50,919 nucleotides of DNA, taken from IMG/VR virus record IMGVR_UViG_3300032144_000015, positions 1 to 50,919 of that record, one strand, 5' to 3'. The translations under genes were made by a program, and so were the position numbers. Under the pieces are notes generated by a model. The model saw only the letters and a program-made list of their open reading frames with translations, ran no database searches and was not told the origin of the DNA. The DNA is from a virus. This document shows, piece by piece, positions 15,191-50,919 of this stretch. The stretch's first letter is position 1; every line of letters begins with the position of its first letter.

Positions 15191-15219
15191 AGTATGCCGC
15201 GCGTATTGCGAAGTGTAAA
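15191..15219 (-). promoter_or_regulatory. Sigma70-like promoter for the gp157/recT leftward operon
   Basis: The minus strand reads TTTACA (15219-15214), a 17-nt spacer, then CATACT (15196-15191), about 35 nt upstream of ATG 15154. Confidence 0.5.
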
Positions 15220-15238
15220 ACGAAAAACAACCAGGTTG

Positions 15239-15272
15239 AAAAAAAATCCGGTCCCACCGAAGCGAGACCGGA
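15239..15272 (-). terminator. Rho-independent terminator after the 15415-15849 gene
   Basis: Stem tccggtc (15247-15253) / gaccgga (15266-15272). On the minus strand it is followed by U8 (plus-strand A8 at 15239-15246). Confidence 0.7.
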
Positions 15273-15414
15273 CCGACACCGCAAGTCGGCAGGAAACTAA
15301 AGCTGACACCGCTGACCACTTAACGGCGTCATGTTTTCGCAATACCCAAGCGTAGCGAGAGGTCGTTTCCCGATGGGTTTTGACGGTGTCATAAGTATCT
15401 TATCACAAACTGTC

Positions 15415-15849
15415 TTACCTCGATTTCTTTTTGACTATGAATTTTGATGGCATAGGAAAAAATTGCGGTATCGGAATCGGCGCGTCCTGCAAAATTTCAT
15501 ATCTGCTAAAATTACGCACATTTTCGTGCTTTTGACGTGTTTTTCGTTTAGATTGCGAACTGCGTCCGAGTTTCGAGCCTTTATTAACATTGCGTCCCTT
15601 CCAATCGAGCACGCATACGAGGGTAAAATCTGGCACTGGCGTCAGTTGGAAGTGATACACCTTTCCAATCTGTTGCCGCCAGATCCTGCCATCGTCTGCG
15701 AGGTTATGCAGTGCCCGCGCAGTTTGTGCTATCCAGCATTTGGATTCATCGGCCAGCCAGGAAAGCTTAACACCTTCATCTGGATCGCCTGCTGATAGTT
15801 TCAAAAACGCTTGATACACGCGTTCCAATACTTCTTTTTTTTCTTTCAT
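15415..15849 (-). CDS. Putative winged-helix DNA-binding regulator with a basic C-terminal tail
   Basis: 144 aa. The N-terminal ~90 aa are helix-rich (VKLSWLADESKCWIAQTARALHNLADDGRIW then a beta hairpin KVYHFQL). The C-terminus is Lys/Arg-rich. Monocistronic, between the ORF-free region and a terminator. Confidence 0.45.
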   Translation of the reverse strand: MKEKKEVLERVYQAFLKLSAGDPDEGVKLSWLADESKCWIAQTARALHNLADDGRIWRQQIGKVYHFQLTPVPDFTLVCVLDWKGRNVNKGSKLGRSSQSKRKTRQKHENVRNFSRYEILQDAPIPIPQFFPMPSKFIVKKKSR

Positions 15850-17551
15850 TAATTTTTTCCTTTCAAAACCTTTTTTTTAGGCAATAGAGCCCCCCTTCTT
15901 TCTTGCGACCCCCCAGGCTGGGGATTAGGGGCCGCCGAAATACGAAACGTGATTTGGATTTTTCCTGATCTTTATGACTTCTGCTTGGGGTCTTTGTGGG
16001 CGATGAACTTCCACTAACTCTTTAGTCGCAAGAGTTCTCAGACCAAACCGAAAAAGAAGGAGGTAGACTACCCGAGCGTTGTTTTACCCCTCGGGTCATC
16101 CTAAGCCCCTGGTTCCTGGGTTTCAGGAACGCATAAGTCATTCAACCAGGTCCCGGTCAGGTTCAGCTGCCTTTAACCCAAGGTCCCCCGGTTATCACGC
16201 CCCACCGTAGCAGGCACGCCCAGGTTACCGGGTTAGAGGACAAGCCATGCCCTAACCGTATTGTGAGAAACGTCTATCCAACCAATCCAGGCACCGGCTA
16301 CCCCAGGGGGGGCCTACTCACCCGTGACAGATGGTAGGGCTTGTGTTCGGTTTCCAGGGGTATTTCATACCCGGCACCTTCCAAAGAATTGGCTAAACGC
16401 CTGGGGCTATTAACCCCAGCAGACCTAAAACCCCGTTTCATCCACCATGATTCTGGTCTTCCGAATCATGGTGCTTGGCATTCCTGTTAACGGTCGCAGC
16501 CGTCCCCGCACCGACCTCTTCGGATCGCTTTGTGTATCTGGGCCGACGCGTTGGAATTTCGGATCTGGGGCTTTCGGTGTAAACCTGCGCTTGCGTTTGA
16601 GCGGAATGTCGTGGCAGGATTTTCTTGCTTGATCTGCGGCTGACTAGCTGCTAGAAGCACAAAACCCTGCAGCTTCACTGCAGTCGAAAGCCTCAGAATC
16701 GAGTGTCTCCGGGTCGGCAAAACACAGAGGGCACAAAGATTCGAATAAGTTTGAAGGTTTTCGCTCGGTCCGCTGAAAATGGAAAGTGTTTTTTTCGGTC
16801 CGCCTAAATGTTCCCCAGCACTGTCTAGCTAGCAGCCTGGGGAAAATCCCCCTCCTCCGCCCCCTGGGAAATCCCTGTACAGAATGTACCAACCGAAATG
16901 ACGTCGCTACGGAACGCGACGCAAACGGGGTTTTTACCGCCCTCGTTTTTCCTGCCGAGGATTTACCGTCCTCGGCTTTAGCGCGTCTCAGAATCGAAGC
17001 TGGAGTGCCCCAGCGCGATTTCCGGGGCTGAGATCGGTTCGGGAAAAACCTCCGAACCCATCGGCTATGCAGTTTCTGCTTGGTTTATAGCATTTATGAC
17101 GGCATGCCAGACGCAGCGGATTTTTTTTCCTGAATCGATTTTTTCGTTTTACAACGTGCAATGCATACGGCATAACCGGCCATGCATTTTCGATGAAAAC
17201 CGTTCACCTGTATGCCGGGAAAAACTGGATTCATCGTTATGCTAAAGCGGACCGTTCCCGGCCGCACTCCGCATGCGTGCCCTGCCGGGCTGGAATAAAA
17301 AAACGCTGCCCAGGCTTGACTGCCGAAAGCGAGGAGGACCATGGGAACCAAGGCTGATCGAAGTAAACGCTATTCCTTCGATCGGCCCCAGGATCTCGGA
17401 CCATAGCAGCCAGGACGTTTTCACTGCGTTCTGCCTTAGCAGTGTGACGGCCGGCCCGTAAGCAGAACCGGGCCACGCGGTCATCGAAAATAGACGGCTG
17501 CACGACGATAGACGGAGGGCCTCCGCGAACTAGCACTCGGCTGGGGGCCCT
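15850..17551. ncRNA. Candidate large structured non-coding RNA(s) / non-coding control region (strand unresolved)
   Basis: No ORF >99 codons in any frame over 1.7 kb. The ORFs present are low-complexity and lack an RBS. Many perfect local helices are present (listed in the findings). No family could be assigned by eye. Confidence 0.35.
16954..16979 (+). terminator. Terminator-like hairpin inside the ORF-free region
   Basis: 8-bp stem gccgagga (16954-16961) / tcctcggc (16969-16976) followed by only ttt, so the U-tract is weak. Confidence 0.3.
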
Positions 17552-17579
17552 TTGACTTCACATTCATTATCACTAAAAA
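17552..17579 (+). promoter_or_regulatory. Sigma70-like promoter of the rightward arm
   Basis: TTGACT (17552-17557), a 16-nt spacer, then TAAAAA (17574-17579). GGAG at 17588 and ATG at 17603 follow. Confidence 0.5.
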
Positions 17580-17602
17580 ATTTTAACGGAGTGGAAAGTG
17601 TC

Positions 17603-18037
17603 ATGATCAGCACGCTGATCGAGGATATTAAAAAACAGCTAGGCGACTATAACGCGCAGATCGATCACATTAACCGTGATATCCGCGAGGCCCAGGACTT
17701 CGCGTGTAGCCTTGGATTCATCGGCAGAAAGGTTGAGATACCGCTCGACGACGATGGGACTGTTATGTATTTCGATCCGAACCGAGGAAAAAAAATCATG
17801 CTGTTCATGAAGCGTGGCGGCGATCGTGATTTCGATTCAGTCAAGCTCCATGAACGAATCGAATACCATAAGCACCTGCCGAAATTCCTCGACGCGCTGA
17901 AGAACGCGGCTATGCAGTTCATGCAGCAGAAACTGCCCGCAGATCGGAAAGCCGATCGAAAGGCGCTTGATCCTCTGGAACCCGACGACTTAAAGTGGAA
18001 CCAGATCACGACGAAGAAAACGAAGGGAATGTATTAG
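17603..18037 (+). CDS. Hypothetical protein (first rightward gene)
   Basis: Start re-picked to ATG 17603 (MISTLIEDIKKQL...) after GGAG. The ORF-track start at 17552 is a TTG inside the promoter. Confidence 0.55.
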   Translation: MISTLIEDIKKQLGDYNAQIDHINRDIREAQDFACSLGFIGRKVEIPLDDDGTVMYFDPNRGKKIMLFMKRGGDRDFDSVKLHERIEYHKHLPKFLDALKNAAMQFMQQKLPADRKADRKALDPLEPDDLKWNQITTKKTKGMY

Positions 18038-18144
18038 CCGTGCAGAAATTTGATAGAAAAATCCTCGAAACAGAAAAACGGGCTATCTCGAGGACCGCTT
18101 CAGCTAATAAGCCTCGATGAATTTATAGCGTAAAGGGAAAAAAC

Positions 18145-19167
18145 ATGAGCACTAAAACCCACAAAAAACTGGAACGCTTCGCCGAGCATGCTTTCAAGGG
18201 CGAGGCCTGCAGCTTCGTCCTCTATGAAAGTGCCGGCGAGATCCGCCGCGAAGGAAAGGAGGACGTCGCATACCTCCAACTATATAACGGGCATTTCTGG
18301 AACGCCGGCACTGGCCACGGCCAGCTGTCCTATCTCGGGCCCACGCCGGAAATAGCGGGCATGATGTATCACGCCTCGGAAACCGATGACACAGAGGAAT
18401 TCGAGGATTTCCCGGAGCACTCGCGAAAAATCCTCGAGGATATTTTCGACGACGGCGGAAGCGCGCTGCCGGGCGTGCTCGGCCAAATGATGAACGAGCT
18501 GATAGGTCATGAAGAACGGCCCCCGCTCGAGGAGCGTGTGAAGAAATATAACCCGCGTCCCATGCAGCCCTCGCTCGGAAAGCCGATTATGAATCAGCCG
18601 AAGGAATGGGACGAGCGGCTGCGCCAGGAACTGAGTAAGTGGGAAGTTATCGATCCAGTTACCATGCAGCGCCGGCCGGCCTATCCTGATAAGCCGCGCT
18701 ATGGCTTTCGCGCGTTCTGCACGCGCGCCCGGGAAATCCTGAGAACCGAAATCTCGTACGAAGTTTTTTCCCACGATGAAAACGACGAGACCACAGAATA
18801 CGCATGCCAGCTGGATCTCGGCTACGATAAGGACGGCGATCTGATTTCGTTCTACTTCGTTAAAGTCGGGAACGCCTACTATAACAGTAACGCCGGCCTT
18901 ATGCTCGAGGTTCTCGGCGTCGATCCGATCAAGGCTGCGCAGTTTTGGTGTCACTGCGAAGGATGGTGGAACCCGGAACCGGAGGACATGGGCAAGGATG
19001 ACTTCGATCCTGAATTCGATCACGATCATGATTACTGGGGCGATATCGACGAGGTCCAGCATGACAACCGGAATACGGTCTACTGGCCCTCGGAGTGGAC
19101 GGACATGATTAAGCGGAATCAGACGGAGGCGGCCCTGTATGAAAATGGACGGACAAAAAACCCATGA
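18145..19167 (+). CDS. Strongly acidic hypothetical protein
   Basis: 340 aa with RBS AAAGGGAAAAAA. Asp/Glu-rich runs (ETDDTEEFEDFPE; EPEDMGKDDFDPEFDHDHDYWGDIDE). The antisense 304-aa ORF is Arg/Val/Leu-rich and looks like a shadow ORF. Confidence 0.65.
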   Translation: MSTKTHKKLERFAEHAFKGEACSFVLYESAGEIRREGKEDVAYLQLYNGHFWNAGTGHGQLSYLGPTPEIAGMMYHASETDDTEEFEDFPEHSRKILEDIFDDGGSALPGVLGQMMNELIGHEERPPLEERVKKYNPRPMQPSLGKPIMNQPKEWDERLRQELSKWEVIDPVTMQRRPAYPDKPRYGFRAFCTRAREILRTEISYEVFSHDENDETTEYACQLDLGYDKDGDLISFYFVKVGNAYYNSNAGLMLEVLGVDPIKAAQFWCHCEGWWNPEPEDMGKDDFDPEFDHDHDYWGDIDEVQHDNRNTVYWPSEWTDMIKRNQTEAALYENGRTKNP

Positions 19168-21276: not shown

Positions 21277-21882
21277 ATGCTAGTCAGCAAATACATCATA
21301 GCAGGTCAGCCTGATCTGGCGGCCACACGGGCCGCTGGATTTGTGTTTCCAAGGGTTATGTCAAGTCCGGCCGTCATCGAGATCGAAAGGCTGTTTAATC
21401 AGCCCCTGGCCGACGGTGTCGTCGAAAACATGGCCGTGAACGCCAGCGTCGCTTCCCCTCGGACATTTCAGTATCAAGTGCCCGCCGATAAGTTTCTGAT
21501 CATTTCCGAGATAAACATGATCCTCGTCGATTCCGGCGTCTCGCTGGATCGCTTCGGCGGCCGCACGGCCCTCGTCGGCGGAGTGATCTGGCGCGTGGTG
21601 GACGGCGATAATAACCTCGTCTACACCTTTCGAAACAGTAACGATCCAGTCCTCCGAACGAATGCCGATTTCTACTCTGTGGCCGGCGGCCAGATCTCGA
21701 TCCAGCCTGGAGATGACAGCGTCACGGTCCTTTGGCGGCCGATCACGATCGGTGTCGTCGTGCTGATCAAAAGCGGTTATAAGCTGCAGATGGTTATCCG
21801 TGATGACCTTAGCGCGATGAAAACTTTCAAGGCCCAGGTGTTCGGCCGTCTGATCGAACCTGACTTTGTCCAGAACGTCTAA
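21277..21882 (+). CDS. Paralogue A of a tandem 201-aa beta-rich protein pair (unknown function)
   Basis: RBS AAAGGGGAAG, with the extended -10-like tgttacaat upstream. Shares NMAV(N/D)A, FQYxVPAxK, FGG, G(V/I)IWR(V/I)VD, KSG(Y/W)K(L/V)Q..RD and GR(L/I)..P with 21895-22500. Confidence 0.65.
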   Translation: MLVSKYIIAGQPDLAATRAAGFVFPRVMSSPAVIEIERLFNQPLADGVVENMAVNASVASPRTFQYQVPADKFLIISEINMILVDSGVSLDRFGGRTALVGGVIWRVVDGDNNLVYTFRNSNDPVLRTNADFYSVAGGQISIQPGDDSVTVLWRPITIGVVVLIKSGYKLQMVIRDDLSAMKTFKAQVFGRLIEPDFVQNV

Positions 21883-21894
21883 GGAGGAAGCGTC

Positions 21895-22500
21895 ATGCAG
21901 TTAAATCGCGATTTCATCGGCGCAGGTCCCAATGTAGCAGCTTCCCAGGCAGGAGGGGCCGCGTACTTTAAAGTCCAGACGTCGCCGTTTTTCCTCGAAA
22001 TGTCGGGCGACATGATCGTTCGTTTCCTGCTGAACGGATCCTCGAGAAACATGGCCGTGGACGCCACGCCCGCCGCGCCGGCCATTTTCCAGTACGTCGT
22101 GCCAGCTGGAAAATATTTCTCGATGAACGGGCTGAATCTCGTAATAGTCGATGACGCGATCTCGCCCCTGAAATTCGGTGGGATCGGTTCCGGGCCGCTG
22201 GCGAACGGAATCATATGGCGGATAGTCGATCAGTCGGACGCGCTCGTCATCAATTTCCACGCTGGCGTCAGTATCGTTTCAAATTACGAGTTTCATCATT
22301 TGATGAATGCCGATTTCGTCGTGACGCCGGCCCAGGACGTCATGCTCGTCAACTGGCGGTCGACAAGTTTCGGGGCTATGCCGATCCTGAAATCGGGCTG
22401 GAAAGTCCAGATTCTCGTCAGAGACGCCCTATCTCTCCTGGATCGCTTCGAGGCCTCGATCGTCGGACGGATCCTGGATCCAGTGACGTTCGCGGTCTAA
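21895..22500 (+). CDS. Paralogue B of the tandem 201-aa pair
   Basis: RBS AAGGAGGAAG. Same length and the same ordered motif set as 21277-21882 (roughly one third identity by eye). Confidence 0.65.
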   Translation: MQLNRDFIGAGPNVAASQAGGAAYFKVQTSPFFLEMSGDMIVRFLLNGSSRNMAVDATPAAPAIFQYVVPAGKYFSMNGLNLVIVDDAISPLKFGGIGSGPLANGIIWRIVDQSDALVINFHAGVSIVSNYEFHHLMNADFVVTPAQDVMLVNWRSTSFGAMPILKSGWKVQILVRDALSLLDRFEASIVGRILDPVTFAV

Positions 22501-49515: not shown

Positions 49516-50919
49516 TTACACGCCAGCCGCGGCAAGGCTTTGGGCCAGCCCGATGGCTTCGTCGAATTTTTTCGTCAGTTCCACGATATCCGTTTGAAGC
49601 GCTGCCAATTCATTCCCTGAATTTTCATGCATGGCTGGTTCCGACATGCCGTAGCCGCCGCGGGACTTGAAGCGCTCCATGAGTTTTTTCAGCGCTTCCT
49701 TGGCTGCAGCTCCATTGCCGCCGTCGATCAGCGAGCAGATCTCGCCGTACTCGGATTCCATGGCGGCATAATCAGCGTGCGGATCGGTGTCGACGTGAAT
49801 ATTCACGACGTCATCGTCGCCAGTTTCGTCGCCGTTCATGGCTGCGAATTTCGCCTCGAGTTTTTTATAGTCGTCTTTGCTCATGCGTCCATGATTCATA
49901 AGGCTTCGGGCCTGCAGTTCAGTGATAGGCTGGCCCTTATATTCGACACGTTTATACTTGGCCATGATTTCTTCATGCGTCAGCGTTCGCATGCTTCCGA
50001 TCTGCCCGACCATGATAACGGGCTGACGGTCCTCGTACGATTTCAGGACCGAGGTCACGGTGTCATCAGGCTTTCCTGCGAGATCCTTCACGTTCAGTTT
50101 TTTGATTTCAGCCGGCGTGATTTTTCCGGAGGCGCGAAGGCCGGAAAGGCGCTGATAGAGGCTGGCCGTGCGCGCCTTAAGCTGCGCTCCGTTAAGTGTA
50201 GTCCGAAAATCATTCGAGAGCTGCGTGATACTGCCACGGCCCGCCGCAAGTTTCTCGTCTTTCTCTTTCTTATCCTTATCTTTCTTTTCATCTTCATCGT
50301 CCATCTCCTTGGCGAGTTTTTTAAGCTCCTCCTCGTCCTCCGCTTCCTCCAGGCGCTTCAGTTCTTTCTCTGTGTCCTCGTCAGACATTTTCTTCGTCAG
50401 CTTGAAATATTTCTCGGCGCGTTTTTTCATGAGAATGAACATGGGTTTTTTATCCTTTGGCTTGGAATCGTCCTTGGCTTTCATCATGGAAGCGTTTTCA
50501 GCGGCAGGGAATGGGGTAACGGTCATCTCGTAGAGTTTTGCGGTATCGAAGTCGGCACCGATCGAAAGGTTATGCCAGCGGCCGTCCATGACTTTCTCGA
50601 CGTTCTCTTTACCGAGAAATCTAAGATTCCCGTAAAGGGCTTTCTTCGTCTTTCCGTCGTCGTCGGTGAAGTCATCGACAGACAGTTCGCCGTTCAGCCG
50701 GCCGACGGTGTCCTGGGCGGATCTCGTATGATCGAGCTGGATCGGCGGGTTCGCTCCGATCGGGACCTCGCCCGAGGCGAGGCGCTTCAGCTTCCCCCAA
50801 CGGCTGTTATAGGCCTGGGCGAGTTTCGTCAGGTGATCGGCCGTAACCTTGACCGGACCGTCGGCGGATTCGAAGTCGCCCTCGTAGACAAAGCGTGCAC
50901 GCCGGTCGATGAAATCAGG
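49516..50919 (-). CDS. Prohead protease (HK97 gp4 / Mu gpI-like, S78-type) fused to a scaffolding domain; 5' end continues at 193..1
   Basis: The frame is open from 50919 down to the stop at 49516 and continuous with ATG 193 through the junction, about 489 aa in total. Putative catalytic motifs are IQLDHTRSAQDTVGRL (His) and HNLSIGADF (Ser). The C-terminal half is a charged coiled coil (KKLAKEMDDEDEKKDKDKKEKDEKL). Confidence 0.65.
   Translation of the reverse strand, partial: PDFIDRRARFVYEGDFESADGPVKVTADHLTKLAQAYNSRWGKLKRLASGEVPIGANPPIQLDHTRSAQDTVGRLNGELSVDDFTDDDGKTKKALYGNLRFLGKENVEKVMDGRWHNLSIGADFDTAKLYEMTVTPFPAAENASMMKAKDDSKPKDKKPMFILMKKRAEKYFKLTKKMSDEDTEKELKRLEEAEDEEELKKLAKEMDDEDEKKDKDKKEKDEKLAAGRGSITQLSNDFRTTLNGAQLKARTASLYQRLSGLRASGKITPAEIKKLNVKDLAGKPDDTVTSVLKSYEDRQPVIMVGQIGSMRTLTHEEIMAKYKRVEYKGQPITELQARSLMNHGRMSKDDYKKLEAKFAAMNGDETGDDDVVNIHVDTDPHADYAAMESEYGEICSLIDGGNGAAAKEALKKLMERFKSRGGYGMSEPAMHENSGNELAALQTDIVELTKKFDEAIGLAQSLAAAGV
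50793..50919. repeat. Second copy of the 127-bp terminal overlap
   Basis: Exact copy of 1-127. Confidence 0.95.

Follow-up and report, generated by a model that had tools for sequence, protein, structure and literature searches.

The 1.75-kb stretch at positions 15850-17602 of the IMG/VR virus record IMGVR_UViG_3300032144_000015 contains no gene and an excess of perfect hairpins, and it lies where the two gene arms of this phage genome diverge. The window, that is, the whole stretch of DNA that was analysed, covers all 50,919 nucleotides (nt) of the record. We read the gene-free stretch as an acquired composite control region acting in cis. Its transcripts would be antisense RNA or long untranslated leaders, and its hairpins would work locally; the probability of this reading is put at about 40%. 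The region was probably acquired horizontally. We observed an excess of hairpins and of folding energy over shuffled controls, inverted promoter-like blocks, a terminator and a deviant composition, and found that the relatives lack the region. The region is delimited as follows (ORF, open reading frame; aa, amino acids).

15850 to 17602, no strand assigned: ORF-free, hairpin-dense region of 1.75 kb between two flanking 144-aa genes, at the divergence of the gene arms

Gene-free stretches on the kilobase scale are rare in packed phage genomes, and the cases that have been studied (ICP1, PLE and the GOLLD/ROOL prophages) hide abundant RNAs or origins. The present region sits at the slot that the replication initiator occupies in the relatives, with a hairpin excess beyond chance.

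Coding capacity of the region

The sequence-only reading of this DNA had described positions 15850-17551 as free of ORFs, and this was confirmed. The longest ORF within that interval encodes 99 aa (17237-17536, minus strand), and TAA, TAG and TGA are each present in all six frames. Since all three stops occur in every frame, a recoded stop codon cannot rescue a gene, and stop-codon recoding or an alternative genetic code was ruled out. The ORFs were also scored with a log-odds model of codon usage that had learned from 21 long genes in the same genome. All ORFs of the region were negative (-0.03 to -0.40 bits/codon), whereas the real genes scored +0.07 to +0.43. When the six-frame translations were searched against Pfam and PHROGs (E<=1), nothing credible was obtained, the lone PHROGs match having an E value of 0.073 over 16 residues. 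Furthermore, the gene callers behind the JGI and Logan records made no call in 15850-17602 between the flanking 144-aa genes. These results show that the region is without coding capacity.

Only one small ORF combines a Shine-Dalgarno (SD) sequence with an ATG, and an array of micro-ORFs was rejected for this reason.

17341 to 17406, plus strand: ORF of 21 codons with the strong SD sequence GAGGAGG, possibly encoding a leader peptide, possibly present by chance

Recognisable remnants of a decayed gene were likewise sought and rejected: the six-frame scans at E<=1 revealed no frame-shifted remnant of a Pfam or PHROG family, although a gene may have decayed beyond recognition. No significant match to the region was found by tblastx or tblastn with the junction genes of the relatives or with the genome itself. 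An identity of 13 nt with the start of a relative's gene (GGACCATGGGAAC) was at chance level and had no extension.

Hairpins and folding energy

All 12 helices that had been listed by eye proved to be perfect Watson-Crick helices, and the TTT after position 16976 is present. We then counted perfect 7-bp stems with loops of 3-30 nt, using 1000 dinucleotide shuffles as the control. The region contained 11 such hairpins against 2.9±1.7 in the shuffles, none of which (0/1000) reached 11; genome blocks of the same size contained 3.7±2.3, with a maximum of 11. The minimum free energy (MFE) of the whole region corresponded to z values of -5.0 on the plus strand and -5.5 on the minus strand, whereas five coding control blocks gave values of -0.14 to -1.65. 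Comparison with dinucleotide-shuffled controls was one of the checks that the sequence-only reading had itself proposed, and both hairpin density and MFE differ from them.

The excess of folding energy over the shuffles was -55 to -70 kcal/mol, which is about the contribution of about eight surplus local perfect hairpins. In local windows of 150 nt, the mean z was -0.85 in the region and -0.3 in the genome. In total, 18 perfect hairpins were recognised, 13 to the left of 17110 and 5 to the right of 17150; their stems are mutually unrelated in sequence and their loops are 3-29 nt long. Individual hairpins of the region are listed here.

16443 to 16473, no strand assigned: strongest hairpin, with a perfect 11-bp stem and a 9-nt loop; pair probability 0.99-1.0 on both strands
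16954 to 16976, no strand assigned: perfect 8-bp hairpin (GCCGAGGA/TCCTCGGC), then TTT
17036 to 17058, no strand assigned: perfect 7-bp hairpin (GGTTCGG/CCGAACC)
16070 to 16096, no strand assigned: perfect 7-bp hairpin (ACCCGAG/CTCGGGT)
16108 to 16150, no strand assigned: 7-bp outer helix around an inner hairpin at 16112-16130
16811 to 16844, no strand assigned: 8-bp hairpin on CCCCAG/CTGGGG, around the palindrome CTAGCTAG
17356 to 17383, no strand assigned: perfect 8-bp hairpin (GATCGAAG/CTTCGATC) within the putative leader described below; the arms extend to 15 nt at 87%
15911 to 15923, no strand assigned: palindrome CCCCAG-G-CTGGGG, one of the region's 11 CCCCAG/CTGGGG words

CCCCAG/CTGGGG was the sole recurring stem word. 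It occurred 11 times against 1.2 expected (p 6e-8) and was used by three hairpins in both orientations. The pattern of the 11-bp hairpin at 16443-16473 had zero matches in IMG/VR. Intrinsic terminators did not account for the hairpins, as 15300-18200 contained 4 terminator-like sites against 4.4±2.4 expected, and most of the 18 hairpins were without a T-run. The long-range 8-bp pairing of 16647-16654 with 16829-16836, which had been suggested as possible, was not significant, since chance alone should produce about 22 pairs of complementary 8-mers in a sequence of 1.7 kb.

The strands were compared in sub-regions. Between 15886 and 16500, z was -1.2 on the plus strand and -2.7 on the minus strand, and the plus-strand ensemble was more diffuse than that of the shuffles. 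Between 16500 and 17110, the fold was equal on both strands (z -3.3/-3.5), and at 17182-17602 the values were -2.3 for the plus and -1.3 for the minus strand. The whole-region fold showed long-range helices with a pair probability of about 0.9 on the plus strand and of 0.1-0.3 on the minus strand, but the ensemble statistics of the sub-regions disagree with this. Raw counts of G-U-compatible extensions had pointed to the minus strand for the hairpins left of 17110; this assignment was gone after the flanks and loops had been shuffled. Under this control for the composition of flanks and loops, the z values of the strand asymmetry were -0.68 (13 hairpins left of 17110) and +0.14 (5 hairpins right of 17150). 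The signal thus consists of strong, local, strand-symmetric palindromic hairpins with no sign of a global architecture, and it is not assignable to a strand.

Promoter-like blocks, terminator and leader

An inverted repeat of 61 nt with 74% identity was found between 15193-15262 and 17174-17110. Two of its sub-blocks, 14 and 13 nt long, match exactly (TGTAAAACGAAAAA and GAAAAAAAATCCG), and neither has another exact copy in the genome. The elements in and around the repeat are listed here.

15191 to 15262, minus strand: promoter-like block A, with T8, N10, TTTTTCG, TTTACA (15219-15214), N17 and CATACT (15196-15191)
17110 to 17176, plus strand: promoter-like block B, the inverted copy of A, with T8 (17121-17128), TTTTTCG, TTTACA (17148-17153), N17 and CATAAC (17171-17176)
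15835 to 15869, plus strand: partial third copy of the T-rich block, 77% identical to 17121-17155, overlapping the start of the left 144-aa gene
15239 to 15272, minus strand: hairpin resembling an intrinsic terminator, with a stem of 11 bp (2 of them G-U), a UUCG loop and T8; perfect 7-bp core at 15247-15272
17182 to 17602, plus strand: putative structured leader of 420 nt before the first right-arm gene, if block B fires
17552 to 17581, plus strand: sigma70-like site TTGACT-N18-AAAAAT, with 9/12 matches

Both blocks read outward with the arrangement T8-N10-TTTTTCG-TTTACA-N17-CATAMY, and each has 9/12 matches to the sigma70 consensus, which was assumed here. Block A lies about 35 nt upstream of the ATG (15154) of a Gp157-like gene, which is preceded by the SD sequence GGAG, and directly downstream of the minus-strand terminator with its UUCG loop and T8. 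This hairpin at 15239-15272 is outside the region, downstream of the left 144-aa gene, and has the properties of an intrinsic terminator. A scan with the block motif pattern gave zero matches in IMG/VR and in 185,579 GTDB species genomes.

An island of 1.9 kb is flanked by blocks A and B, which look like paralogous early promoters of divergent orientation. The island between them consists of the orphan 144-aa gene and about 1.26 kb of ORF-free DNA with 13 hairpins. The region itself is composite as well, with about 1.26 kb of ORF-free DNA followed by block B and then by the 420-nt leader. When folded on the plus strand, the leader sequence gave an MFE of -153.7 kcal/mol (z -3.08), and 0/100 shuffles folded as well. 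The sequence-only reading had placed a sigma70-like promoter for the rightward arm near 17552; a site with 9/12 matches does exist there, but such sites are not enriched (1 found vs 2.4±1.7 expected in shuffles).

Composition of the region and the orphan gene beside it

By dinucleotide distance, the region was the most deviant 1.75-kb block of the genome, with 0.148 against 0.057±0.020 (maximum 0.135). Its tetranucleotide correlation was 0.556, whereas the other blocks showed 0.83±0.045 with a minimum of 0.63. The tetranucleotide CTAG is avoided genome-wide (29 occurrences vs about 196 expected from base composition, a 6.7-fold under-representation); within the region it is near-random, at 2.85/kb against 0.49/kb. 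In comparison with the rest of the genome, CCWGG was about 2-fold enriched in the region, and GATC, TCGA and GCGC were 2-4-fold depleted.

The first gene on the left side is likewise atypical.

15415 to 15849, minus strand: orphan 144-aa gene, the first gene leftward; called in public annotations, with low codon adaptation

Its codon score is about 0. The protein had no match in Pfam, PHROGs or the Protein Data Bank (PDB), and a word-indexed search of 5.8 billion proteins returned no homologue but itself. An exhaustive HMMER search of 1.84 billion representatives yielded one weak match (E 7.6e-6), to a repeat unit of about 81 aa in an unannotated 624-aa protein. A winged-helix regulator was considered but found no support, since the AlphaFold2 model was unusable (predicted local distance difference test, pLDDT, 42) and PDB and Pfam gave no match. 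The presence of a terminator after this gene suggests that the two form a self-contained, moron-like unit. The deviant composition of the region and the codon score of its neighbour fit a non-coding nature, a foreign origin or both. The most deviant composition of the genome, the escape from CTAG avoidance and the atypical codon usage of the orphan gene are compatible with an acquired island.

An 11-mer, TGGATTCATCG, is present exactly three times in the genome, always on the plus strand and within 2 kb (15741-15751, 17226-17236 and 17713-17723). The copies are located in the left 144-aa gene (antisense), the leader and the right 144-aa gene (sense). The outer copies extend to a 14-mer, which would give the mRNAs on either side a complementary stretch of 14 nt.

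The junction in relatives

Homologues of the region were sought in several collections. No match was obtained by blastn in 50,697 phage records (INPHARED) or 72,556 plasmids (PLSDB), and 85 related loci showed no similarity to the region by nhmmer or blastn. The flanking proteins had no relatives in IMG/VR, the 340-aa protein of the right arm had none in the JGI metagenomes, and the Gp157-like protein found only itself in large protein databases (E<=1e-10). RecT was the sole handle on relatives, at 42-52% identity, none of them in the GTDB genomes. In one relative, IMGVR_UViG_3300000271_000005, the left arm is syntenic at 50-69% aa identity and the divergent junction measures about 357 nt; in other relatives, junctions of 66 nt (JGI contig) and 416 nt (Logan contigs) were found.

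The first left-arm gene of the relatives encodes a family of 291-359-aa proteins whose members are mutually homologous, and one member matches PHROG families annotated as replication initiation protein (E 2.4e-6). Two relatives carry 4-7 tandem repeats of 24 nt inside this gene, encoding SPEIGGTA/ETPLRGGT. By analogy, the gene with its internal repeats looks like an initiator-plus-iteron origin. A homologue of the initiator-like protein was not found in the present genome (best tblastn E 0.34), and the region holds no trace of it. From the syntenic slot and the lack of an initiator homologue, it follows that the region and the orphan 144-aa gene occupy the position of the relatives' replication-initiator module. 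The relatives thus carry an intact gene at the syntenic spot, a finding that the sequence-only reading had linked with gene decay, but the region has no similarity to that gene.

Each of the 24-nt repeats contains a CCCCC..GGGGG palindrome. The repeat-bearing gene is located at L061:1-528 plus L003:1-453 in IMGVR_UViG_3300000271_000005, where it spans contig ends, and at L062:8035-9114; apparently, the repeats broke the IMG/VR assembly of the former relative at that point. In a further relative, a gene of the Acb2/Tad1-hairpin family (anti-CBASS/Thoeris sponge) lies beside the initiator-like gene (L065:5041-5319). This identifies the junction as a hotspot at which phages of this group carry accessory cargo.

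Proposed function and alternative explanations

An atypical origin or control hub had been the second option of the sequence-only reading. It fits the anatomy better than a large RNA does. From the features described above, we infer transcription itself, the direction of the promoters and the roles of the hairpins. Block A would probably fire outward into the Gp157/RecT operon, and block B would probably fire outward into the right arm. The ORF-free DNA may then be transcribed as a long untranslated leader, as antisense RNA or as both, and the hairpins may act individually, be it in transcriptional pausing or termination, in RNA processing or stability, or as palindromes to which proteins bind. 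On the right side, the predicted structured leader of 420 nt, with 5 hairpins and the 21-codon ORF, would precede the first right-arm gene.

Several points weigh against such a control region. Promoter-like sites were not enriched overall, and no promoter was identified for the orphan 144-aa gene. A U-tract was present on only one or two of the 18 hairpins, so most of them are not classical terminators, and the lack of a consensus among the hairpins speaks against one shared binding protein. That the blocks are of the sigma70 type has been assumed. No homologue was found from which selection on an element could be read. It would also be odd for a leader to run to 1.26 kb with no recognisable function.

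The sequence-only reading had preferred a large structured RNA of the GOLLD/ROOL class. This assignment failed wherever it could be compared. With Rfam 15 and gathering thresholds, cmscan returned no match anywhere in the window. At E<=10, 15500-17900 gave 7 chance-level matches, none of them to GOLLD, and ROOL was also unmatched; nor was there an Rfam match for group I/II introns, RNase P, tmRNA, 6S, OLE, raiA or HEARO/omega RNA. GOLLD (RF01998) and ROOL (RF03087) are large phage-associated non-coding elements with a predicted multi-hairpin layout, and to this extent the region resembles them. They typically stand beside tRNA genes in phages and prophages, although this context is not an absolute requirement, whereas the present genome has no tRNA and the region has no covariance-model match. 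Moreover, ROOL averages 581 nt, the region being 2-3 times longer, and the hairpins here are perfect, simple and strand-symmetric, with no sign of conserved multistem junctions or pseudoknots. One large structured non-coding RNA (ncRNA) of a new family, about 1.2-1.7 kb long and functionally analogous to GOLLD/ROOL or to the ICP1 ncRNA of about 800 nt, would account for the lack of ORFs, the MFE z of about -5 and the long-range helices of the whole-region fold on the plus strand, with their pair probabilities near 0.9. The partial block at 15835-15869 points into the region, T8 at 17121-17128 could end a plus-strand RNA of about 1.2 kb, and abundant large ncRNAs from ORF-free gaps of phages are known. 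Against this, the surplus energy is explained by local hairpins; 15886-16500 folds worse on the plus strand (z -1.2 vs -2.7) with a diffuse ensemble, which contradicts a plus-strand RNA; G-U usage shows no asymmetry between the strands; and T8 at 17121 has no hairpin directly before it. The stems are perfect Watson-Crick stems and not the irregular, G-U-containing helices typical of ornate RNAs, the promoter-like block at 17110-17176 splits the stretch internally, and covariation support is absent because there is no homologue. A single ornate RNA of 1.7 kb thus found no positive support, and we consider a large RNA of a new family improbable. We are similarly doubtful that the stretch encodes a large structured phage RNA that has so far gone unseen, one form of which would be a sense/antisense pair of structured transcripts that primes or controls replication and replaces the protein initiator and iteron origin of the related phages, an RNA-based substitute for a replication module.

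A replication-origin module in place of the relatives' initiator/iteron cassette would be initiator-independent, that is, primed by transcription or RNA or dependent on recombination, and hairpins in single-stranded DNA or in complementary sense and antisense RNAs would contribute to it. The lambda O gene carries the iterons of ori inside it, and the relatives' initiator-like gene (PHROG E 2.4e-6, with internal 24-nt repeats in two cases) resembles it. That the present genome lacks this protein and has no other recognised initiator also favours an origin, as do the strand-symmetric palindromes, which suit a function at the DNA level or in sense/antisense RNA, the AT-rich T-tract blocks at 15835-15885 and 17117-17157, and the precedent of the PLE satellite, whose ori sits in a non-coding region of about 3 kb (PMC7567579). 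We nevertheless regard an origin as rather unlikely. Tandem Repeats Finder detected no array in the region, which holds only two-copy pairs spaced by about 30 nt and no motif with more than 5 loose copies; DnaA boxes (TTATCCACA, <=1 mismatch) were absent from 15850-17602 and at chance number genome-wide. The GC content of 54% equals that of the genome, the GC-skew is not diagnostic, phage origins are typically several times smaller than the region, and an orphan protein of the right arm could be an unrecognised initiator that acts elsewhere. The region might instead be a non-functional foreign or decayed remnant (a recombination scar or dead cassette) under little selection, in which template switching could have generated the palindromes as quasi-palindrome mutations. 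Its sequence is unique to this genome, with no DNA or protein similarity in the collections searched, the relatives manage without it, its oligonucleotide composition is extreme with relaxed CTAG avoidance, the gene next to it is an orphan and poorly adapted in its codons, and hairpins that are perfect, mutually unrelated and strand-symmetric are what a mutational origin predicts. This, too, seems to us unlikely, because the hairpin excess is strong (0/1000 shuffles; MFE z about -5), phage genomes rarely keep 3.4% of junk, no frame-shifted remnants of Pfam or PHROG families or of the relatives' genes were found, and two exactly conserved promoter-like sub-blocks flank part of the region. Least credible is a defunct mobile element of about 2 kb (15193-17174) with terminal inverted repeats that carried the orphan gene. 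The 61-nt inverted repeat (74%, two exact blocks) does bound an island of atypical composition, but no target-site duplication is visible at its boundaries, no transposase or recombinase is present, the repeat pattern has no further copy in this genome, IMG/VR or the 185,579 GTDB species genomes, and the repeats read well as promoters that are rightly placed.

Comparison with known systems

In the early control and immunity region of lambda, PL and PR flank an island. The arrangement of the present control region is similar in that related divergent promoter-like blocks flank an island whose gene is oriented leftward and terminated before the leftward promoter. Unlike in lambda, most of the island is non-coding and an O-like gene is missing; neither a repressor nor Cro nor operator repeats could be recognised.

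ColE1-type origins are RNA-primed. In P4, P1/P7 and N15, the RNA-based immunity and antisense leaders are untranslated and hairpin-rich and lie next to early promoters (PMC7567579). In all these systems, stem-loops on complementary transcripts regulate or prime, which, by analogy, would explain the strand-symmetric hairpins. Those elements, unlike the region, measure 70-600 nt and have defined complementary targets, and the resemblance is one of analogy only.

Precedents for ORF-free DNA on the kilobase scale are the ncRNA locus of ICP1 (about 1 kb) and the non-coding region of PLE (about 3 kb) (PMC7567579). The former yields the most abundant transcript, of about 800 nt, and the latter holds the origin (PMC7567579). 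The region shares with both the kilobase-scale stretch, and with PLE also the position between oppositely oriented gene clusters (PMC7567579). It has no sequence similarity to either and is known here from sequence alone. In PLE, the origin is of the RepA/iteron type and the neighbour is marR-like; here, iterons are lacking and the neighbour is an orphan. Should the region prove to be a new large RNA or an origin that is RNA-based or needs no initiator, it would represent a new way to build a phage replication or control module. The sequence is an orphan, found once in one metagenome sample, and may equally be an acquired, partly decayed island. In practical terms, it is a well-characterised candidate for transcript and origin mapping.

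Features of the genome

The phage genome is about 50.8 kb long and circularly assembled or terminally redundant, since bases 1-127 are identical to 50793-50919, a terminal overlap of 127 nt. The same sequence was recovered from one sample in the JGI and Logan assemblies (SRR9694932); the two are 100% identical and are therefore uninformative on population variation. The phage context assumed in the sequence-only reading held, as Gp157-like and RecT-like proteins are encoded directly to the left of the region and the other genes include a large terminase, DNA methyltransferase/ParB-like proteins and many orphans. There is no close cultured relative; the identity to GenBank phages was 22-27% for the terminase and 30-35% for RecT. 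ARAGORN found no tRNA or tmRNA in the 50.9-kb genome. In the right arm, two adjacent 201-aa genes (21277-21882 and 21895-22500), which have no family assignment, form a pair of paralogues with 34% identity (E 5e-41).

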